Below are positions 31,209 through 40,521 of a stretch of DNA of 61,562 nucleotides, one piece after another. Both the position numbers and the translations under genes were made by a program. How positions within the stretch are numbered: position 1 is the stretch's first letter; the number at the start of each line of letters is the position of its first letter. The notes under the pieces are model-generated. The model worked only from the letters and a program-made list of their open reading frames with translations. It was not told the origin of the DNA and did no database searches. Source of the DNA: an uncultured Thermoplasmata archaeon (GTDB taxonomy: Archaea; Thermoplasmatota; Thermoplasmata; Halarchaeoplasmatales; Halarchaeoplasmataceae); NCBI GenBank assembly GCA_964486225.1, contig CAZAMQ010000002.1:1-61562 (forward strand), given 5' to 3'.

Positions 31209-32705
31209 TCACCCGAAGAACTCCAACTTCGTCTTTTTTCTACCTTCGACAACATCATCGAATAGATCTATTTTTATGGGTACGGCGAACTTGGTGAATA
31301 TGCTGCTTACAAGAGCTTCGCCCTTGTCCAAGCTAGCGATATTCTTTCCGTCCTTTGACAGGTCCTGTGCCGCACTACCGATTATCGCTTCTCGCTCGCT
31401 CTTCATCTCGTTACCGAGTATGATCTTGGTGTTCATGTTGGCCAGTATCTCCCTTGGTATCATGCTGGACAGCTGTGTGATGGCGATGAGTCCGACGCGG
31501 AACTTTCGCCCCTCTCTAGCTATCGAGTGGAAAACATTCCGACCTCCCCGTTCACCAAGTACCCTTGGTGCTTCCTCGATCACTATACCGATGGTCGGTT
31601 TACTGTCTAGTTCCCCCAACTCTTTGTACTTTTTATATCGATTGAATACCCTGTCGGTTATCATACCGGCTATCAACAACTCCTTATCACCGGACATGGA
31701 ACTAGTGTCTAAAATCACCTTTCTACCGTCCTCCAGTGCGTCGGCGATCTCGTTGACCATATTGCCGGAACCTTGGGTAACGAATATACTTCCTCTAGGC
31801 ACTACCTCGCCGTTGATCATACGTACGTCAAAGGCAAGCTGCAATTTGCGCTGGAGAACATTAAGAGTTGTTTCGTGGATACCGTGTTCCCTAGCATCTT
31901 CGGCTTCCGCACTTAGGACCGCCTCCAGCCAGTTATCTTGGTATATATTGTAGTAGACGTACATGGCCTGACTTTGGGCGTCCGTTATCTCGATGATCCC
32001 CCTGAGATTCCATGGTCTAAGCAGGGATATATTGATCCTCAGGCTATAGCCACCTTTCGGCGGGTTCGGTGAATAGTACAGTACTTTATCTCTGGCATCC
32101 GGATGGTCCTTTATACCTATCTCGTTACGACCGAAGTATTCATCGTGGGGGTCTATCACCAGGACCCCACACCATTCCTTGGGAACCATGTCCCACAGCA
32201 TCACCTTGACCAGGTTACTCTTTCCGCGTCCCGTGGTTGCAGGTATCAATATATGGTGAGAGAGAGCCTCCTTGCCGTTTATCTTTACCGGTACATCCAA
32301 TACCATGCTGCCGCTCCGTACCCTGCCGAGATACAGGCTGTTATCCGGTTCCTCCATGAAATAAAAATCGTCCTTCTTGACCCTGTCCACCGTACCGAAG
32401 AAACCCGGCAATCGTTTTGGTATCTTGGCAACCCCATTTTTGACGTGTACCAGGGGCTTTGCCTTGGCACTTACATAATTCCTTATCTCCTCCTCCATCA
32501 GTGAGGTATCTTCGTAACCTTCCAGCTGCATGCCGCTCATCCTAGCGATGTCCGTATCTTCCAACAGTGAGCCGTAGGCAAGGTCGTACACTTGAAGGAT
32601 GATGTCGTCTATGGACAGTAAGTCACCTATCTCTATTATCTGCCCGCTCTTTTGCCTTACCAGCAATTCGCCGTATTCTCCGCCTATTATCTGTCCTACT
32701 ACCAT
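31209..32705 (-). CDS. herA: HerA hexameric DNA helicase/translocase
   Basis: 498 aa. Walker [12 protein letters not shown], Walker B VIEEAPRV. Adjacent to nurA and mre11. Confidence 0.85.
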
Positions 32706-32715
32706 ATGATCTCAC

Positions 32716-33735
32716 CTAAATATCACTCAATAAATCGTGGGCGTTCATGGAGTTCACCCTGTAACGCATGGACTTGCCCATCATGCCCGTTCCCAATGTT
32801 CTGAGGTACTTCACCTCTTCATCGGTTACACGTGCCCTTTTGTCCGCATCCACAAGCCCGTAGGGATAGCCCAGGAACACGGGGTCCTTTGCCTGTACCC
32901 CGAGTTCGCCCAGTACCTCATCTACCGGAATATCTTGTTCTCGATGGAACTCCGTGCGAAAGACGTAGTCCGAAGATGCATGGTATTTTACCACGTACAT
33001 ATCTCCCATGTGGTCAGGATGCCGGTTAGATGCCATCGGATGGTAGTTCCATCTTCCGTATCCGGTATCTTCCGCAAGGGTCCTTATAGCCGCTAGCAGT
33101 GGATATCCCGTGGTGGTCATGAGGGAACTAGTCTTTGCTATGCCTGTGAGTATAACACCCTTTCCAAGGCACGTCCGGTAAAGGTCATTTGCGTAACCAC
33201 GTTCTTCCTCCACGCTCGTCTGGAGTACACCGTCCTTTACCAGTATATCACCTTCATTCATATACTCTTTTGCTGCGTACTCGGCCACCAACCATTCAAG
33301 GTAACGTCTTACGGTGTGTCCGGCGTTCATCATGCTTCCGCCGTCGACCTCATCTCTGTTAAGCACGAATTTACGTTCCCCCAAAGGGATGGTAGAGTTT
33401 ATGGGATATAGTACAGAAACTATCGAGTCCTCAACAGGTCTTGAAACGAGGTAACCGCTGAAGGGTTCGATATTCTTAAGCCTCGTCCTACCCCTGAAGA
33501 GGTTGAAATATACCCGAAGAAGGTGTATGCATTCCGACGGTGACTCAAAGATGGTGTTGTTGCCTCCGTCCACACTACAGACAACTCTGTTATTACTTAC
33601 CGACTCAAAAGGATGGAAGTTATCCGTTGACAATGGAAAGGGGTCATAGTAATGCTCCTGTTTAAAATAAGGCAGCCCCCACTCTTCCGGTATGTGATCG
33701 ATATCACTCAACAGATCCATCAGTTCACGTATCAT
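32716..33735 (-). CDS. nurA: NurA 5'-3' nuclease
   Basis: 339 aa. VDGGNN N-terminal acidic motif. Position directly upstream of herA. Confidence 0.75.
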   Translation of the reverse strand: MIRELMDLLSDIDHIPEEWGLPYFKQEHYYDPFPLSTDNFHPFESVSNNRVVCSVDGGNNTIFESPSECIHLLRVYFNLFRGRTRLKNIEPFSGYLVSRPVEDSIVSVLYPINSTIPLGERKFVLNRDEVDGGSMMNAGHTVRRYLEWLVAEYAAKEYMNEGDILVKDGVLQTSVEEERGYANDLYRTCLGKGVILTGIAKTSSLMTTTGYPLLAAIRTLAEDTGYGRWNYHPMASNRHPDHMGDMYVVKYHASSDYVFRTEFHREQDIPVDEVLGELGVQAKDPVFLGYPYGLVDADKRARVTDEEVKYLRTLGTGMMGKSMRYRVNSMNAHDLLSDI

Positions 33736-33835: not shown

Positions 33836-34903
33836 TTAGCGGGGTCCAGCGGCATCGAGCATCCGGTTGAAAAGATTGTAACAATCTTCTATCTCACCTT
33901 CGTACCTGTGTCTCAACATGCCGACGTCGAGACAGGTAGGTTTCGAGTTATCCAAAAAGTCAAGGAGGGTTTCCCTCGAACGTTCGAATATATCTTCTAT
34001 GAATTCCGGCCTGTCGTGGAGTACGGACCTACCGAATACTGAAAGGTACTTGAACGAGTTTCCCCCGTACATTTCGGCCTCATCTGTTTCCGATACCATC
34101 TTCAAAAAGGACACACCGATAAGATATGGAATACCGATGACCTTTTTCATCACCTTGTCGTGATCCTTTGCATCGATCTGGAGCATTTCGAAACCCATAG
34201 GCTGGAAGACGGACCTTACTGCTTCGGCATCGGCCTCCCTTCCCTCTACAGGTACGATGACCACTCTTTTGCCTTCGAGGTTCTTTGAGCCGCAGCCGAA
34301 CATGGGATGTACACTCGCTACCTTGACGGAATCGGGAAATTTATTGTAGATACCGAGTACTTCATCCTTAAAGGTGGATATGTCGAAAACCGCCTTTTCA
34401 TTCCCTGAAATCGCCATATCAGCGAGCTCTTCAACTATTCCGGGTACGGTATCCGTCGGTGTGGCTATCATTATAAGATCGCAGTCCCTGTAAAGCTCAC
34501 TTATGGATGAGTAGCAGTGGAAATCATCGGTTATATCTTTGGTATCGTAAAGGCCGACCTCCATCTTCATAGAGAAGTCTTCCGCCAATAACTTCCCCAT
34601 TCTACCGTATCCGATTATGCCCATCTTCTTATTACTGAGATGGCTAGCATCCGTGCTGCTCATGCTCGAAAGTTCTTCTCGCTTTGTCTTGCTGATTATA
34701 CGATGAAATATGTCTCGGTAGTCCCCAGCTCTCTCTAACACCTTCATCTCCCGGCCCAAGTCTTCGACGGATAAATTCCTAAGGACCTTTAGCTCCCCTA
34801 TCTTACAGCCTAGCTTGACCCTTTTATCGAGTAACTCAATCATCGCCTCGTCTATCTTGTCTATCTCTTTCCTTAGTTCATATATCTCTTCCAAGGGAAC
34901 CAC
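33836..34903 (-). CDS. tyrA: bifunctional chorismate mutase / prephenate dehydrogenase
   Basis: 355 aa. N-terminal CM helix LRKEIDKIDEAMIELLDKRVKL. Rossmann MGIIGYGRMGKLLAED. Confidence 0.8.
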   Translation of the reverse strand: MVPLEEIYELRKEIDKIDEAMIELLDKRVKLGCKIGELKVLRNLSVEDLGREMKVLERAGDYRDIFHRIISKTKREELSSMSSTDASHLSNKKMGIIGYGRMGKLLAEDFSMKMEVGLYDTKDITDDFHCYSSISELYRDCDLIMIATPTDTVPGIVEELADMAISGNEKAVFDISTFKDEVLGIYNKFPDSVKVASVHPMFGCGSKNLEGKRVVIVPVEGREADAEAVRSVFQPMGFEMLQIDAKDHDKVMKKVIGIPYLIGVSFLKMVSETDEAEMYGGNSFKYLSVFGRSVLHDRPEFIEDIFERSRETLLDFLDNSKPTCLDVGMLRHRYEGEIEDCYNLFNRMLDAAGPR

Positions 34904-34970: not shown

Positions 34971-35780
34971 TCAGCCCGTAGTGGGTGCTGTACCAAGAGA
35001 TGTTTTCATCCACGGGCCGACTTCCCGCATAAGTTGGTTGAAATCTTCGAACCTCAAACTCTGATTGCCGTCACATAATGCATTTTCGGGTTCCGGGTGT
35101 ACCTCGATCATGATCCCGTCCGCTTCGACAGCCACCGCTGCCTTTGTAAGGGGTGTGATCAGGTTTCTTTTACCTGCAGCATGGGACAGATCAACGACTA
35201 TAGGCATGGAACAGCGTTCTTTTACCACCGGTACTGCCGATATATCAAGAGTGAACCTGGTAGAGGTCTCGAATGTCCTTATACCCCTTTCGCACAGTAT
35301 CACATCCTCGTTCCCTTCGCTGATTATGTATTCCGCCGACTGGAGCCATTCCTCTATGGTGTTACCGAAACCTCTCTTCAACATCACCGGTTTGTTTGTC
35401 CTTCCAACTTCCTTTAAAAGGTCGAAATTCTGGCTGTTCCGGGCCCCGATCTGTAAGATATCTATGTACTTACACAAGAGTTCTACTTTCCTAGTGTCCA
35501 TCACCTCGCTTACCGTGGGCAAACCGTATCTTTTACCTGCGTCGCTGAGCCATTTGAGGGCTTTTTCCCCATAGCCCTGGAACGAGTAGGGCGACGAGCG
35601 TGGCTTGAAGGCACCTCCCCTGAGAACATCCACGTCTATTCCCTTCAGAAAGCTTGCGGTTTTCATTATCTGCTCTTTACTTTCAACAGAACACGGTCCC
35701 GCGATCAAGACGATGTTTTCACCGAACTTGACGCTGCCGACCTTTACCATTTTTCTCTCATTGTCGATCTGGTCGTTCAT
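34971..35780 (-). CDS. 3-deoxy-7-phosphoheptulonate (DAHP) synthase, KDO8PS-like class I-beta
   Basis: 269 aa. LIAGPCSVES, RGGAFKPRSSPYSFQG, MLKRG, CERGIRTFE, DLSHAAGKR. Confidence 0.85.
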   Translation of the reverse strand: MNDQIDNERKMVKVGSVKFGENIVLIAGPCSVESKEQIMKTASFLKGIDVDVLRGGAFKPRSSPYSFQGYGEKALKWLSDAGKRYGLPTVSEVMDTRKVELLCKYIDILQIGARNSQNFDLLKEVGRTNKPVMLKRGFGNTIEEWLQSAEYIISEGNEDVILCERGIRTFETSTRFTLDISAVPVVKERCSMPIVVDLSHAAGKRNLITPLTKAAVAVEADGIMIEVHPEPENALCDGNQSLRFEDFNQLMREVGPWMKTSLGTAPTTG

Positions 35781-36250
35781 CTATCTTTCACCTCTTCGTA
35801 GTCTATCGTTATTATATCCCGTATCATCTTTCCGTAGGATGTAAGGGTCACCGGAACAGGGTCGTCCCTGCAGCCATAATCTATAAGGTAAAGATCTTTA
35901 AGTATACGGGCATTAAGTTTGAGGGTAGATACCGGTTTCTCGTACCTATCAGAAAGGTGGTTGAGCAATTTATTCAGGGACTTTTTATCCCCGTTGATAT
36001 GCTCTAGTAGGAATCTCTGGTTATCGTTCAAAGCCCTTAAGAACAGATTTCTAAATACTTCAACGTGCTCTTCGGCGCTACCCTCTAGCAGGGCAACAGA
36101 TATTGGCCGGGCATCACGACCATACTCTTCTCGAATTGGCAGGGCATCACTATCACGTTCATCACAAGCAAAAGGGCTCCTATTTAAATCATTGGATTGG
36201 TCTACCTGTCTATATGGATTCATGGTATCATCATGTAAGTATTCGGACAT
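35777..36250 (-). CDS. hypothetical wHTH-like protein, first gene of the DAHP synthase/tyrA unit (start uncertain)
   Basis: 157-aa ORF. The C-terminal ~85 aa is wHTH-like (LLEHINGDKKSLNKLLNHLSDRYEKPVSTLKLNARILKDL). The N-terminal ~55 aa is acidic and low complexity and contains the shared 23-bp element. The stop overlaps the DAHP synthase start. Confidence 0.45.
   Translation of the reverse strand: MSEYLHDDTMNPYRQVDQSNDLNRSPFACDERDSDALPIREEYGRDARPISVALLEGSAEEHVEVFRNLFLRALNDNQRFLLEHINGDKKSLNKLLNHLSDRYEKPVSTLKLNARILKDLYLIDYGCRDDPVPVTLTSYGKMIRDIITIDYEEVKDR
36101..36188 (-). promoter_or_regulatory. TATA-like box plus two copies of the shared aromatic-locus element
   Basis: Read on the minus strand: TTTAAATA (36188-36181), a 24-nt gap, GTGATAGTGATGCCCTGCCAATT (36156-36134), then an 18/23 copy at 36123-36101. 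Confidence 0.5.
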
Positions 36251-36521
36251 CTTTATCCCCCCTAGTTGTTCTAAAGTTGAGTGACCATGGAACCGGTCAT
36301 CTTTCAGGGCTCGGCCAAACTAAATCCCTTCTTGTCATATGTTCATGCTATGTAGATGTAGTATTTAATACTTTGGTGTACAAAATTATACACTATACCC
36401 AACCAAATATCCTACGAAGAACACTATGATCCCTAATATTCAACAGCGACTTAATAAACCGGCCGGCGTTACCAAAAGTATATACAGACCGTCCTTCGCC
36501 TTCAGCATATAGGTGTATGAT

Positions 36522-36695
36522 ATGAAAGAACCCATTTGTTTTATAGGGATAACTAAGGAATCTGACCTTCTCAAGGCAAAGGTCCAAAGCAACCAAGGAA
36601 GGTACATAGAAATAGAGAACCAGGATCTAGATTATCTTCTGGAGATGGTATACCAGGATATATCGATGGAGATAGACGAAGAAGAATACTGGTAG
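36522..36695 (+). CDS. small acidic hypothetical protein
   Basis: 57 codons from ATG 36522. TATA-like GTATATAC about 40 nt upstream. No recognisable motif. Confidence 0.25.
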   Translation: MKEPICFIGITKESDLLKAKVQSNQGRYIEIENQDLDYLLEMVYQDISMEIDEEEYW

Positions 36696-37079
36696 ATCTG
36701 TCTGATTCTCAAAGAGATGTTAAGGTTGAGCTTCGAGGGGTGAAGTGCAAGGTTTCCGGTACCTCCAGTCCTTCTTCCACCAGCCGGAGGACTATCTCCT
36801 TATCACCATGCAGTTTGTAACCGGTAAAGGACGTGTCGAACAAGAGTGTACCGTCCATGTTTCTCCAACCGTTCCATCTCCTTTGTCCTGCCCGTCAACT
36901 TGGGGATCAATGAAAGGCCATGAACGGTCTCATCCATATATCATAAAATTCCCGTAATGTATAAAATCTTTGCCTCTTGAAACCTTTTCCTACCGGATGG
37001 TGTGACGAACATCATATTGTTTGTGATGGGTTAACGTTGAAAGACGGTAGTCGATACCATACACCGGCCTGTACAAGCT

Positions 37080-39368
37080 CTACAATCTATCCAGGATATC
37101 TTTTTTCTTGCTCTGGAATTCCTCTTCTGTTATCAGCCCACGGTTTTTCATGTCTTGGAGTTCCTCAAGTTTGGTTGTGATGGATTCGTCTACTACCGCA
37201 GGTGTCTGTTCCGGTGGAGCATCTGCAGGAGGAGATTCCGGTACACCGTGCACTGGTTCGGAAACAGGAGTTCTTTTTTTCTTTAACAATAGGACCAAGG
37301 CTAGTAAAACTACGATACCGATTATTATCAGAAAGATCCACCAATAGGACGAAAGAAATCCCTTTTCAGACTCGTCCGTATCAGATTCACCGTTACTTTC
37401 CTCCGAAAAGGGTGTGCCGCTTTCCTCGATAGATCTGGCACCTTCCCCAGCACCATTCACCGCACTGACCTGGTAATAGTAGGTCTGATCGTTGGTCAAA
37501 CCGGTGTCGACATACGAGGTATTGGAACTGCCTTCTTCGTGAAGAAAACTCAAACTGCCGCTGGTGGTTCCCCGATATATCCTGTATCCGGTTATATCGC
37601 TACCTCCGTCGTCCGCGGGTTCAACCCACGACAACGTTATTTGCTCGTCTTTCGGGGACGCTTGAAGATCACGTGGTACCGAAGGCATGGTGATACCCGA
37701 AGAGGGGGTAACACTCACCTCGTCCGACCTGTTTCCTTCCCTAACAGCGTTCACCGCGCTGATCTGGTAATAATAGGTCTGATCGTTGGTCAAACCGGTG
37801 TCGATGTAAGAATAGATGTTACCTGCAACACCGTAATGATAACTTAAACTTCCGCTGACGGTTCCACGATATATGTTGTATCCGGTGATATCACTGCCGC
37901 CGTCGTCTTCGGGCGCACTCCAGGAAAGTGTTACCTGTTTATCTCCCGCTCCGGCGGCAACGTTATGAGGTACGGATGGGATCCCCTCTGGCATAGCGCT
38001 TACTTCGGCACTAAACTCACCTTCCCCTGCACCGCTCTCAGCGGTTACTGTGTAGTAATATGTCTGGCCGTTGGTAAGGCCGGTGTCGTTATAAGATAAT
38101 ATGTTTTCGTCAACACTATCATGGTAACTAAGGTTTCCACTGGATCCTCCGCGATATATATTGTATCGAGTGATACTACCGCCGCCATCGTCGGAAGGGG
38201 CATCCCATAAAAGTGATACCTGCTTATCACCCGGAACCACTTGTAGATCTTCTGGCGCACCCGGGGCTTCGATCATGGACCTAGCGTACTTCAGATCTTG
38301 ATTGGTGCTGTCTATATAACTGATGTATGCGTTACCTATGCCGTCAAGGGCCATGGACGAGTGAGAGCCAACAGAATCACCACTAGTGTCCGGATCTGTG
38401 ATCCGCCATTCTGTCCCGGTCCACCTGGCATATCTGAGGATGTTATCGGTGCCATAACGGGCATAACTGATATGAGGATTATCACTGCTGTCCAAAGCTA
38501 TGGTCGAGACATCGCCTATGGCGCCATCACTGTCAATGGTTTCGATAAACCATTCTGTACCATTCCATCTGGCATATTTAAGATTGTACAATCCGGAGTG
38601 ACAGTAACTTATATGTGGACTATCATCGCTGTCCAGGGCGATGGAGGTCCCTCTGGCAAAATCTCCCTCGTTTATGTTATCCACCGTCTCGATGTTCCAT
38701 TGACTTTCGGTCCACCCGGCGTACTTGAGATTCAAGTTTCCGTCATAATAACTGATATGGGGGTTATCGTCGCTGTCCAAGCTTATGGAAGTGGACCTAC
38801 CCACATCACCGTTACTATCCACGGTCTCGATGCTCCATTCGCTACCGGTCCATCTGGCGTATTTGAGATTATTGTTTATACTATCAGAATAACTTATATG
38901 AGGACGGCCGTTTCCGTCGAGGACTATGGAACAATAAAAACCAACGTCACCGTCGCTGTCCACGGTCTCGATGTTCCACGTACCCCCTGTCCACTTGGCA
39001 TACTTTAGATTTTCGTTAGTATTATCTCGATAACTGATATGGGGATTCCCTGTCCCGTCAAGAGCTATGGATGTGCTCCAGCCCACATCGCCATCGCTAT
39101 CCACTGTATCTATATCCCATAAACTTCCTGTCCATGCGGCGTACTTCAGGTTGCCGTTAGTGTCATCATAATAACTGATGCGTGGACGTGAATTCATATC
39201 AACAGCTATGGAATTGAAACGACCTACGTATCCATCACTGTCAATGGTCTCGAAGTTCCATTCCTCCGCACCCCGGGCGGTGTCTATCGATAGATTCATG
39301 GTTCCCAATAACATAGCACTGACTAACAGCACCGTCAAGCCCAGCGTTAGATTCTTTTTGGTTTTCAT
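37080..39368 (-). CDS. surface protein: 7-bladed beta-propeller repeats + 3 fibronectin type III domains + TM anchor + cytoplasmic SHOCT tail
   Basis: 762 aa. Signal peptide. Seven ~46-aa repeats (W.IETVDSDGDVG..TSIALD..G.PHISY....NLKYA.WTG). Three FN3 units (..DDGGS.ITGY.IYRG...LTN.QTYYY.V.A). TM IFLIIIGIVVLLALVLLL. C-terminal LEELQDMKNRGLITEEEFQSKKKDILDRL. Confidence 0.8.
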   Translation of the reverse strand: MKTKKNLTLGLTVLLVSAMLLGTMNLSIDTARGAEEWNFETIDSDGYVGRFNSIAVDMNSRPRISYYDDTNGNLKYAAWTGSLWDIDTVDSDGDVGWSTSIALDGTGNPHISYRDNTNENLKYAKWTGGTWNIETVDSDGDVGFYCSIVLDGNGRPHISYSDSINNNLKYARWTGSEWSIETVDSNGDVGRSTSISLDSDDNPHISYYDGNLNLKYAGWTESQWNIETVDNINEGDFARGTSIALDSDDSPHISYCHSGLYNLKYARWNGTEWFIETIDSDGAIGDVSTIALDSSDNPHISYARYGTDNILRYARWTGTEWRITDPDTSGDSVGSHSSMALDGIGNAYISYIDSTNQDLKYARSMIEAPGAPEDLQVVPGDKQVSLLWDAPSDDGGGSITRYNIYRGGSSGNLSYHDSVDENILSYNDTGLTNGQTYYYTVTAESGAGEGEFSAEVSAMPEGIPSVPHNVAAGAGDKQVTLSWSAPEDDGGSDITGYNIYRGTVSGSLSYHYGVAGNIYSYIDTGLTNDQTYYYQISAVNAVREGNRSDEVSVTPSSGITMPSVPRDLQASPKDEQITLSWVEPADDGGSDITGYRIYRGTTSGSLSFLHEEGSSNTSYVDTGLTNDQTYYYQVSAVNGAGEGARSIEESGTPFSEESNGESDTDESEKGFLSSYWWIFLIIIGIVVLLALVLLLKKKRTPVSEPVHGVPESPPADAPPEQTPAVVDESITTKLEELQDMKNRGLITEEEFQSKKKDILDRL

Positions 39369-39489
39369 TTTACCCCGTCCATTCTGCCAACAGAAATTAT
39401 ATCATATCTAAATAAAGATTATGGTTAAGAAACTAAACATCCTGGAAAACTATTATTACTCAGCACACCAAAAAAACTCACTAGACCCA

Positions 39490-40317
39490 TCACGGTACCG
39501 GATAATCATCTTCAAGGTAGCATCCTAGGTATTTAAAAGATAAGGCCTTATCTTCAGCTTTTTTTAGGGCCATTCTAACGGCTTCGTCCCTGATATCACC
39601 TCTGAGATCAAGAAAAAAATTGTACCTCCATGGCTCTTCTCTCGTAGGTATAGATTCTATACGGGTCAGATCTATTCCCGCCGCGGCGAATATTTCGAGT
39701 ACACTGTATAGGGCCCCGGGTTCGTGAAAGGTGGAAAAGACGATGGAAATTTTATCTCCACTTTCCTTACCATCTTTCCCTATCACCACAAACCTTGTCA
39801 TGTTATTTTCCCTATCCTCTATACCGGATGCTAGTATATCCAGCTCGTAAAGATCGGCGCATTCCCTCCGGGCTATGGCCGCGGTTCTCTTCGGTCTGTC
39901 CCGGGCCAGCATCAGGGCAGCCCCTGCGGTGTCGTAATAGGGTACGGGTTCCAATTTTTTATGCCCGATGAATTCCCTGCACTGCCCCAGGGCCTGGAGA
40001 TGCGAATACACATATCGGATATCTTCCGGGTGGGTACCTCTGTTGATAAGGAGACAGTAACGTATCGGCAGGTTCAATTCGCCCACTATCATGTGATCAT
40101 TATCGATAAGCAGTTCGTTCACTTCTTTTATCCTTCCTTCCAGGGAATTTTCTACGGGTAGTATAGCGAGTTCGATATCATCATTCTCAAGAGCTTCGAA
40201 TACCTCATAGAAAGTATGGAATGGTGTATGCTGTGCCCACGGCGAAAACTTAATGGCCGCGGCCTCGCTGTTGCATCCCGGAACTCCCTGATATCCTATG
40301 GATTTAGCATTTTTCAA
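39490..40317 (-). CDS. pheA: prephenate dehydratase with C-terminal ACT domain
   Basis: 275 aa with a TTG start. GYQGVPGCNSEAAA, TRFVVIG. ACT segment ISIVFSTFHEPGALYSVLEIFA. Confidence 0.85.
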   Translation of the reverse strand: MKNAKSIGYQGVPGCNSEAAAIKFSPWAQHTPFHTFYEVFEALENDDIELAILPVENSLEGRIKEVNELLIDNDHMIVGELNLPIRYCLLINRGTHPEDIRYVYSHLQALGQCREFIGHKKLEPVPYYDTAGAALMLARDRPKRTAAIARRECADLYELDILASGIEDRENNMTRFVVIGKDGKESGDKISIVFSTFHEPGALYSVLEIFAAAGIDLTRIESIPTREEPWRYNFFLDLRGDIRDEAVRMALKKAEDKALSFKYLGCYLEDDYPVP

Positions 40318-40329
40318 CAGGTCTGTGTA

Positions 40330-40383
40330 AATTGGCAGGGCATCACTATCACTTGCAGGTTTGAATAAATACGTATTATATAT
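40330..40383 (-). promoter_or_regulatory. TATA-like box plus the shared aromatic-locus element upstream of pheA
   Basis: Read on the minus strand: ATATATAA (40383-40376), a 23-nt gap, GTGATAGTGATGCCCTGCCAATT (40352-40330), then 12 nt to TTG 40317. Confidence 0.5.
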
Positions 40384-40521
40384 GCCTTTAGACCGCTCTA
40401 CCTGGCTATGTTATCCGATAGGATATGACACCTTTGTCTTTTTTGAAATTGTAAATTATCAGCCGTAACGAAATCACTTAACATTAAACTTAAATATCCA
40501 TCCCAGTTCTCATAAAATATC

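Follow-up and report, generated by a model that had tools for sequence, protein, structure and literature searches.

A 23-bp sequence, AATTGGCAGGGCATCACTATCAC, is repeated upstream of two aromatic amino-acid biosynthesis loci in a 61,562-nucleotide stretch of DNA from an uncultured Thermoplasmata archaeon of the Halarchaeoplasmataceae (assembly GCA_964486225.1, contig CAZAMQ010000002.1, positions 1 to 61,562 of the forward strand; hereafter the window). These loci are pheA and an operon encoding a winged helix-turn-helix (wHTH) protein, 3-deoxy-D-arabino-heptulosonate 7-phosphate (DAHP) synthase and TyrA. The repeat most likely represents the translation-initiation region and the first five codons of a conserved leader mini-open reading frame (mini-ORF), which we term the aromatic sensor unit. 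We propose that a ribosome translating this unit would pause at its fifth codon, with a -1 frameshift as the favoured route by which the pause would be turned into expression of the downstream genes, and we assign this combined statement a probability of about 0.68. That the element is a translated leader sensing aromatic amino acids is very probable; the frameshift as its output step is a tentative proposal. All functional statements were inferred from sequence, and positions of transcription start sites (TSS) from TATA spacing.

The two full copies of the repeat, the only ones in the window, lie at 36134-36156 in front of the wHTH gene (tar, see below) and at 40330-40352 in front of pheA (plus-strand coordinates); both read on the minus strand. 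The initial annotation had described this repeat together with a third, 18/23 copy at 36101-36123. Both are genuine: the 23-mer matches exactly at both positions and is absent from all of 100 dinucleotide-preserving shuffles, and the third copy was confirmed by direct reading. A 16-nt core, GTGATGCCCKGCCAAT, occurs three times, always on the minus strand (36102-36117, 36135-36150 and 40331-40346). On the coding strand, TATA-like boxes precede the element by 24 nt at tar (TTTAAATA, 36188-36181) and by 23 nt at pheA (ATATATAA, 40383-40376), as had also been reported. The similarity between the two promoters was said to end abruptly outside the 23 bp. In fact, a second common block, TAGNCAGGTAGANC, lies 10-11 nt 5' of both TATA boxes (36199-36212 and 40395-40408), and these two promoters hold the only exact matches to its pattern in the window. 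The element recurs in more distant lineages and in two related metagenome-assembled genomes, L001 and L004, whose Tar proteins are 90% and 72% identical, respectively, to that of the window; in these two genomes the elements are kept while the flanks have diverged. The distance between TATA box and element is the same in most promoters examined. The pheA leader of L004, for instance, has the same ATATATAA, then a 23-nt spacer of different sequence, then 28 nt identical to the window.

Read on the mRNA strand, the element consists of a Shine-Dalgarno (SD)-like (G)GTGAT or GGTGA, four further nucleotides and ATG CCC NGC CAA T(T/A)Y, encoding M-P-x-Q-F/Y, and is followed by zero to eight codons and a stop; the frame of this mini-ORF lies one base 3' of the annotated frame. 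The pheA copy supplies the SD-like GTGAT, AGTG and ATG CCC TGC CAA TT. The mini-ORF starting here (40314..40343, minus strand, ATG to TGA) encodes MPCQFTQTC, with its Phe sensor codon TTT at 40329-40331; a GTG at 40352 is a possible start, and with the upstream codons the leader reads VIV-MPCQFTQTC. Stop and start overlap in TTGA, the TGA ending the mini-ORF and the TTG opening pheA. The pheA gene itself (prephenate dehydratase with ACT domain, 39490..40317, minus strand) lies in the -1 frame of the mini-ORF and is contiguous with the element. The tar leader mini-ORF (36085..36147, minus strand) encodes MPCQFEKSMVVMPGQYLLPC, or VIV-MPCQFEKSMVVMPGQYLLPC with upstream codons, and lies in the +1 frame relative to the long tar ORF. 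It contains two units: copy 1, composed of an SD-like GTGAT and the Phe unit ATG CCC TGC CAA TTC (TTC at 36133-36135), and, 33 nt or 11 codons further 3', the 18/23 copy, which is a Tyr unit, GTG ATG CCC GGC CAA TAT (TAT at 36100-36102).

We collected 54 distinct units, with the consensus (G)GTGAT-like SD, GTG ATG, YYC, NNC, CAA and then a Phe (TTY), Tyr (TAY) or Trp (TGG) codon. The SD-like GTGAT/GGTGA lies 4 nt 5' of the ATG, a GTG directly precedes the ATG in 53 of the 54 units, and the stop follows 0-8 codons past the last sensor codon. Codon 2 is CCC in 49 units, TCC in four and CTC in one; codon 3 varies in amino acid and is always NNC; codon 4 is always CAA, never CAG. At codon 5 we found TTT (35 units), TTC (5), TAT (9), TAC (4) and TGG (1), and no other codon, with both synonymous codons of a pair in use. 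Spacings between tandem units (33, 36, 18 and 48 nt) are all multiples of three. All 54 units have a short ORF with SD, ATG and early stop, predicted to be translated, 5' of a biosynthetic or aminoacyl-tRNA synthetase operon. The SD, the ATG, the early stop, the aromatic codon 5 and the multiple-of-three spacing are what a translated leader peptide predicts and an operator does not. The NNC at codon 3, the exclusive use of CAA and the prevalence of CCC (49/54) are invariants at the nucleotide level which the peptide does not account for.

The identity of codon 5 follows the function of the downstream genes. Units were found in pheA, aroF and tar leaders of Thermoplasmatota, in tar leaders of Thermococcales, before pheA in Hecatellales (L013) and before one asd-aroA'-aroB' operon. 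They also occur in pheS-pheT leaders of Bathyarchaeia (L010, L100, L121) and Aenigmatarchaeota (L092), where the downstream genes encode the alpha and beta subunits of phenylalanyl-tRNA synthetase (PheRS). A function for the element, its conservation in orthologous promoters and its proposed tie to an aromatic amino-acid regulon are all supported. A Phe codon is present in every pheS-pheT leader (29 distinct) and in every pheA leader (window, L004, L013/L158 and L250), while tar, aroF and asd-aroA'-aroB' leaders contain Tyr, with or without Phe and Trp units. In the window, a single Phe unit heads the pheA transcript, and a Phe and then a Tyr unit, 33 nt apart in the same frame, head that of Tar, DAHP synthase and TyrA. 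The pheA mini-ORF of L004 encodes MPCQFTPDR and shows the same overlap of stop and start as the window. The strongest examples are three tar leaders in which F, W and Y units share one reading frame, those of L253 (MSRQFTKSSNQVMSRQWVMPYQY), L257 (MSRQFTRPSNQVMSRQWVMPRQY) and L255 (MPRQFTQSKVMPRQWVMPCQYL), the last from a Thermococcaceae genome with the gene order tar-tkt-aroF-aroB-aroD-aroE. The Thermococcus gammatolerans leader (L256) ends in VMPHQYW. In sum, the unit is short, sharply defined and present in at least four archaeal lineages.

These leaders came in part from pattern scans. Scanning genome contigs with TGATGCCCNGCCAAT gave 120 rows, mostly chance bacterial matches, among them seven informative archaeal matches which share the architecture of TATA box, about 30 nt, then GTGATGCCCNGCCAAT. 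A metagenome scan, which also returned many chance matches in GC-rich bacterial contigs, added about 27 further distinct pheS leaders and the one leader before asd, a DeoC-type aldolase gene (aroA') and a DHQS-II gene (aroB'). Together, asd, aroA' and aroB' provide an alternative entry to the shikimate pathway. A family of about ten metagenome matches encoding MPCQYRHK before a stop was set aside as an unrelated repeat: it contains a GCTAGCGAGAG...CTCTCGCTAGG hairpin, lies on ORF-poor, eukaryote-like contigs and has no Rfam match. The contigs concerned (L144, L156, L157, L167, L174, L199, L206, L207, L209 and L217) contain GTGATGCCCTGCCAATAT after the hairpin.

At tar, promoter and leader lie within a predicted protein-coding region, the long frame of 157 amino acids at 35777..36250 (minus strand). 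Across 26 Tar homologs the element translated in this frame yields [G/S][R/S]DA[P/L/R]PI, which looks conserved. We nevertheless rejected 'GRDAPPI' as a Tar protein motif, since its variable residues obey a nucleotide logic (R, S, C and G have only NGT codons in common, and L, P and R only CNG) and the same DNA is found in pheS leaders that are non-coding, with a stop upstream that closes the frame. A second pseudo-motif, [S/P][N/K]DL[Y/N], which appears in gene predictions of homologs as 'NDL(N/Y)', is the TATA box (TTTATATA or TTTAAATA) at a fixed distance. In the extension 5' of the element, differences are spread over codon positions 1:2:3 as 9:9:10, 9:8:10 and 7:7:9, compared with 14:9:34 in the helix-turn-helix (HTH) domain, and the ratio of synonymous to non-synonymous changes is about 3:16 versus 30:17. 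The first ~64 codons of ORF 35777..36250 contain the internal promoter and the leader mini-ORF, with no sign of constraint at the amino-acid level. This bears out the initial suggestion that the N-terminal part of this ORF is not ordinary protein: it lacks codon-position bias, and the family profile covers residues 65-151 only. In L001 the codon equivalent to ATG 36250 is CTG, with the frame still open; judging from the sequence, synthesis of a longer Tar isoform with this N-terminal extension is possible but uncertain. In public gene calls, the coding regions of PheA and Tar homologs reach back at the N-terminal side into promoter and leader DNA (L250:1442-2428, L004:6563-7426 and many of P0004-P0043). 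For annotation, this means that many predicted N-terminal extensions of Tar and PheA ('GRDAPPI', 'NDLY') are promoter and leader, with some true starts uncertain.

The wHTH domain (35798..36058, minus strand; residues 65-151 of the ORF) matches the Tar (TK0271) family model NCBIfam NF053753 over profile positions 1-87 of 89 (E 7.3e-34). As its 115.9 bits fall below the curated cut-off of 130 of this narrow 'exception' model, we consider the protein a family-level homolog and not an exact equivalog. In the profile search it also connects to proteins of Thermococcus and Pyrococcus, and the recognition helix, STLKLNARILKDL, does not vary among Tar homologs. The tar gene is followed on the minus strand by genes for an aroF-type DAHP synthase (34971..35780), which overlaps the tar stop codon, and a chorismate mutase/prephenate dehydrogenase (tyrA, 33836..34903); homologs in relatives reside in trp/aro/phe clusters. 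The initial annotation knew of no described archaeal regulator that would fit here, and the Tar family supplies one. Tar of Thermococcus kodakarensis is an activator that binds TGGACA-N8-TGTCCA 5' of the TFB recognition element (BRE) and TATA box (Yamamoto et al. 2019, PMC6737238). In that organism, lack of any single aromatic amino acid induces all Tar-dependent operons, whereas Trp, Tyr, Phe and chorismate have no effect on Tar binding; how one missing aromatic amino acid is recognized was left unexplained, and no leader ORF was described (PMC6737238).

Candidate Tar dyads lie directly 5' of the TATA boxes that precede the units, with a gap of 4-5 nt. At pheA the dyad is TAGCCA-GGTAGAGC-GGTCTA (40389..40408, minus strand; 5 nt from the TATA box; four mismatches to TGGACA-N8-TGTCCA). 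At tar it is TAGACA-GGTAGACC-AATCCA (36193..36212, minus strand; 4 nt from the internal TATA box; three mismatches). L004 pheA has TGGACA-GGTTGAGC-GATCCA at the same position as the window pheA site (two mismatches), and further candidates are TAGACA-GGTCGACC-TGTCCA at L128 aroF, TGGACA-AGTTTACC-TGTCAA at L252 and TGGACA-GCTCAACC-TGTCGA at L256. At that position, at most three mismatches are found in 10 of 20 related promoters versus 0.4% of random positions; the same threshold applied across the whole window gives 24 matches against 27 expected, a count that is uninformative without positional context, and the window sites taken by themselves are not significant. The layout reproduces the published architecture of Tar sites and speaks for Tar-dependent promoters at both TATA boxes, also at that within the tar ORF. 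The Tar operator is likely to be the dyad 4-5 nt 5' of each TATA box and not the 23-mer, and the Tar homolog is itself the probable activator of transcription. Autoregulation by the wHTH protein, initially proposed to act through the 23-mer, is accordingly plausible through the dyad but not through the repeat. At the window promoters and at 12 of 20 scored promoters of the Tar lineage, the distance from TATA box to GTGATG is 29-31 nt. In 27 of 29 Bathyarchaeia-type pheS leaders a TATA-like box starts 39-47 nt 5' of the ATG, and in the L126 aroF leader the unit lies 56 nt past the TATA box. By this spacing, window transcripts would start about 10 nt 5' of the mini-ORF ATG.

The sequence downstream of the units was read in the annotated frame (GAT GCC CNG CCA ATH; frame a) and in the mini-ORF frame (frame b). 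Between unit and pheS start, frame a is free of stops in 24 of 28 pheS leaders, with a mean of 0.14 stops where frames b and c average 3.8 and 2.4, respectively, and in 17 leaders it ends 8 nt past the pheS ATG. In directly read leaders a TGA just 5' of the unit closes frame a (L010: GG TGA AGT GAT), and several pheS leaders (e.g. L132) contain no ATG, GTG or TTG in frame a over the stretch from unit to pheS. PheA is continuous with frame a in the window, L004, L013/L158 and L250, and so is the Tar HTH domain in every homolog, while in L126 and L128 the frame stops over the start of aroF. In window Tar, the TTG at Leu74, part of the conserved LRALN motif, is the earliest canonical start that frame a offers past the units; L115 Tar and L250 PheA lack one altogether. 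There is thus selection for an open frame running from the unit into PheA, into Tar or into a long upstream ORF (uORF) that ends at the main gene start. Because this frame is open and often without a start codon, ribosomes appear to enter it at the unit, which favours a -1 frameshift at a hungry codon.

The direction of regulation points the same way. From the T. kodakarensis data (PMC6737238) and pathway logic, scarcity of the amino acid should raise expression. Both the pheA TTG of the window and the CTA overlapping its tar leader stop lie 14 nt past the sensor codon. Since a ribosome stalled at codon 5 would cover such a nearby downstream start, simple coupling gives the wrong sign. A -1 shift, by contrast, would give the right sign for every unit type, single-unit leaders included. 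In the mechanism that we propose, scarcity of the cognate aminoacyl-tRNA would cause the ribosome to pause at the single aromatic codon, and this pause would switch expression on. With the A site empty, peptidyl-tRNA(Gln) would slip by -1 from CAA to CCA, bringing AUU, AUA or AUG into the A site. The ribosome would then stay in frame a and produce PheA or Tar, or translate a coupling uORF up to pheS or aroF. The GGUGAU that lies 6 nt 5' of C-CAA and is kept in internal units may act as an SD-like stimulator of the -1 shift, a geometry argued from dnaX and prfB. Such a shift could account for the C before CAA, for the use of CAA and never CAG, and for the GGUGAU of internal units. A leader with F, W and Y codons before tar would also explain why the T. 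kodakarensis operons are induced when just one of the three aromatic amino acids is missing, although none of them affects Tar binding. Stated generally, GGUGAUG-YYC-NNC-CAA-UNN may be a modular archaeal recoding switch that shifts -1 on a hungry Phe, Tyr or Trp codon, a proposal as tentative as the frameshift output itself.

Several points weigh against these interpretations. The site, C CAA U(U/A/G)N, is not a slippery heptamer X XXY YYZ, and the slipped tRNA(Gln) would mismatch at its middle base. Folding of the window leaders gave no conserved hairpin after the units; a hairpin GUUGCCCU..AGGGUAGC that can be drawn after the window Tyr unit was discarded as a frameshift stimulator, since by reading L113 and L126 do not share it. 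For 31-86 codons 5' of the units, frame a is open in Thermoplasmatota as well, and in L251 and L252 frame-a start codons overlap the stop of the upstream gene. Given this upstream-open frame and, in the window, ATG 36250 with its SD-like GGGGGGAT 5 nt upstream, Tar could be made as a long isoform without any shift. Canonical Tar starts overlap the leader in L128 (AUGA), in T. gammatolerans (TTG) and in L255 (the AUG of the W unit), and these fit termination-reinitiation or ordinary initiation. The anti-element GGGCAUC of one Bathyarchaeia subfamily can pair with GAUGCCC, so that RNA refolding may contribute. Most pheS units were picked with a pattern that fixes the core, and core invariance therefore rests mainly on the ~30 units reached via Tar protein homology; the lineages sampled are not independent. 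Finally, a search for RNA runs containing the window sequence found none, the matches being DNA runs of microbial-mat metagenomes only.

A doubtful alternative keeps the leader sensor and dispenses with the shift. A ribosome stalled at the aromatic codon would keep the element from pairing with a downstream anti-element, or would block premature transcription termination or polarity (FttA/aCPSF1-type); or else terminating ribosomes would, according to their flux, reinitiate at the codon over the leader stop. The main genes would be translated from their own or from reinitiation starts. In line with this, SD and start codons of their own are present at pheS, aroF and asd, the leader stop overlaps the pheA TTG in the window (TTGA) and the Tar start in L128 (AUGA), and an AUA overlaps it in L004, L113, L115 and L255. 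Subfamily 1 leaders have a conserved CTTTTATT tract, possibly an archaeal oligo-T terminator. In Bathyarchaeia subfamily 2, a conserved GGGCAUC(R) about 50 nt downstream can pair with GUGAUGCCC in a 9-bp consensus helix (L100 has UUGGGGGCAUCA), a putative helix read on units whose element had been fixed by the search pattern; folding the window leaders gave no helix of this kind. What such a mechanism does not account for is the stop-free frame a in leaders lacking a canonical frame-a start. Moreover, as a stall at TTT covers the pheA TTG 14 nt on, pure reinitiation would yield less PheA at low Phe, the wrong direction. Reinitiation at the codon over the leader stop was rejected as a general entry into frame a: the codons there are ATA (10), GTA (6), TTA (4), CTA (3), GTG (2), ATG (2), CTG (1) and TTG (1), with start codons not clearly enriched. 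An improbable alternative is that the leader peptide, in the manner of TnaC, SpeFL or AAP, arrests its own ribosome in response to free Phe, Tyr or Trp; such a stall, at high levels of the amino acid, would block the overlapping or coupled downstream start in a negative feedback. M-P-x-Q-aromatic is conserved, Pro occurs at or near the stop as in TnaC (MPCQFP, MPRQYELP, MSRQFELP), downstream starts lie within the footprint of the leader ribosome, and the direction of regulation would be homeostatic. The peptides, however, are with 5-12 residues too short to fill the exit tunnel, and anything from zero to eight codons may follow the aromatic one. The NNC, the CAA-only codon 4, the GTG before internal ATGs and a relay through long start-less frame-a uORFs are not accounted for either.

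The initial annotation had read the element as a repressor operator covering the TSS. As a present-day alternative, a DNA operator bound by the Tar-like wHTH protein or another repressor, with the mini-ORF features incidental, is very unlikely, and for the element this reading is probably wrong. It draws on the fixed distance 3' of TATA boxes, on the nucleotide-level conservation (NGT for R/S/C/G, CNG for L/P/R) and on the invariant recognition helix. Against it, the element has neither dyad nor repeat symmetry, and it is not always at the TSS, the L126 aroF unit lying 56 nt past its TATA box. It also occurs in phyla and before pheS-pheT genes without a linked regulator gene, including Bathyarchaeia pheS, where a first protein search gave no Tar homologs. 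The ATG, the SD and the early in-frame stops are left unaccounted for, as are a codon 5 that is exclusively aromatic with synonymous variation and tracks downstream gene function, and the multiple-of-three spacing; and the dyad 5' of the TATA box is a far better candidate for the Tar site (10/20 promoters versus 0.4% at random). Hardly likely at all is an untranslated RNA motif read by a tRNA or protein in the manner of a T-box, with the aromatic triplet as specifier. A single amino-acid-specific triplet in a conserved context, with both synonymous triplets used as in T-box specifiers, would suit it. The unit, however, is too short and has no conserved stem around the triplet, Rfam gave no match besides tRNA at gathering score in the window and related leaders, and the upstream ATG and SD, the in-frame stop and the spacing point to translation.

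The Bathyarchaeia-type leaders show further features. The anti-element GGGCATC about 50 nt past the unit is accompanied by an invariant block, GTAGAAACTTCTATACGATG, in twelve leaders (L131, L135, L175, L185, L196, L202, L214, L218, L225, L229, L237 and L247); block and anti-element are conserved at all codon positions, which points to a function at the RNA level. A second subfamily of this type has a conserved GCATACTTTTATTAAAAC, a possible oligo-T terminator.

A second conserved mini-ORF lies upstream of tar at 36297-36338 (minus strand), with a TATA box at 36362-36369 (minus strand), and looks leaderless. After ATTAAATA, an ATG 23 nt on opens a frame encoding MTRRDLVWPSPER, with the core [R/E]RDLVW[P/R] and a single Trp codon. 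The same mini-ORF is present in L001, L004, L128:16978, L250:1387 and L252:1343, and is followed by trpE (L252), a PALP/trpB-like gene (L128), pheA (L250, L004) or tar (window, L001). It may encode a Trp-specific leader peptide of a different type. An inverted repeat TGTAC-N16-GTACA (e.g. TGTACACCAAAGTATTAAATACTACA) straddles the TATA box of its promoter in the window (~36355-36385, minus strand) and also in L001, L004, L128 and L252. TGTACA is the TRP-box consensus of the methanogen repressor TrpY, and the inverted repeat could be a repressor operator on this upstream promoter of the tar operon.

The pheA and tar loci of the window are separated by a gene (37080-39368, minus strand) for a predicted surface protein of 762 amino acids with about eight repeats of ~45 amino acids (…NLKYA.WTG..W.IETVDS.GDVG…), three fibronectin-III-like repeats and a C-terminal transmembrane segment. 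L004 lacks this protein and its pheA directly adjoins tar; the window arrangement thus looks like an insertion that split one pheA-tar operon. Directly 3' of tyrA, 31209-33735 (minus strand) encodes a DUF87/HerA-like ATPase (498 amino acids) and a NurA-like protein (339 amino acids). Mre11- and Rad50-like genes come next after these two in L001; this is the usual archaeal DNA end-resection cluster.

Full-text literature searches for an archaeal aromatic leader peptide, a pheS uORF, an arrest peptide or this element found none, and Rfam holds no matching family for the window or related leaders. To our knowledge, no leader-peptide control of amino-acid genes has been experimentally established in Archaea. 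In bacteria, the genes that the unit precedes are under the control of Phe and Trp leader peptides. If our proposal is true, the switch would limit synthesis of Tar, PheA and, via coupling uORFs, PheRS and DAHP synthase to times of aromatic aminoacyl-tRNA shortage, and would supply the amino-acid sensor still missing from the Tar regulon. As a regulatory frameshift at a hungry codon it would be the first described in Archaea, conserved from Thermococcales and Thermoplasmatota to Bathyarchaeia and DPANN, and a new regulatory use of recoding.

Among known systems, the unit most resembles the Escherichia coli leaders of pheL-pheA, pheM-pheST and trpL, in which a short 5' ORF contains codons of the monitored amino acid and the ribosome serves as the sensor; the same classes of genes (pheA, pheS-pheT and common-pathway operons) lie 3' of the leader. 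In contrast to these, each unit has one regulatory codon instead of a codon run, and leaders with several such codons arise by concatenation of units only. The fixed M-P-x-Q context with its nucleotide invariants, the modular F, W and Y units, the overlapping -1 frame open into the regulated gene and the archaeal TATA/BRE promoters also set it apart. Terminator or antiterminator hairpins with a U-run were not found on folding the window leaders, and one long-range helix was seen in one Bathyarchaeia subfamily. With the T. kodakarensis Tar regulon the window shares a Tar-family homolog heading an aro-type operon and candidate TGGACA-N8-TGTCCA-like dyads just 5' of BRE/TATA at aro, tar and pheA promoters, and the Thermococcales relatives L255-L257 show the same layout of Tar box, TATA box and leader. 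It differs in that the window dyads are degenerate (3-4 mismatches), tar has a long unconstrained N-terminal extension and the activator role is putative. As in TnaC, SpeFL and the fungal AAP, a small uORF with a conserved peptide, often with Pro beside the stop, precedes genes of the same pathway that it would control; unlike these, the peptide is much shorter, codon identity matches the regulated pathway, and sensing of a free amino acid is here hypothetical. Hungry-codon and programmed -1 frameshifting (dnaX, Gallant-type leftward shifts, archaeal fucA1) likewise involve two frames in -1 relation, here with a downstream frame that has no start of its own and is open in 24/28 pheS leaders, and an SD-like sequence 5' of the putative shift site. 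Neither an X XXY YYZ heptamer nor a conserved downstream structure is present here. A review lists a single reported archaeal case of programmed -1 ribosomal frameshifting, and in the mechanism proposed here the shift would serve as a regulatory amino-acid sensor, a role not described in Archaea.

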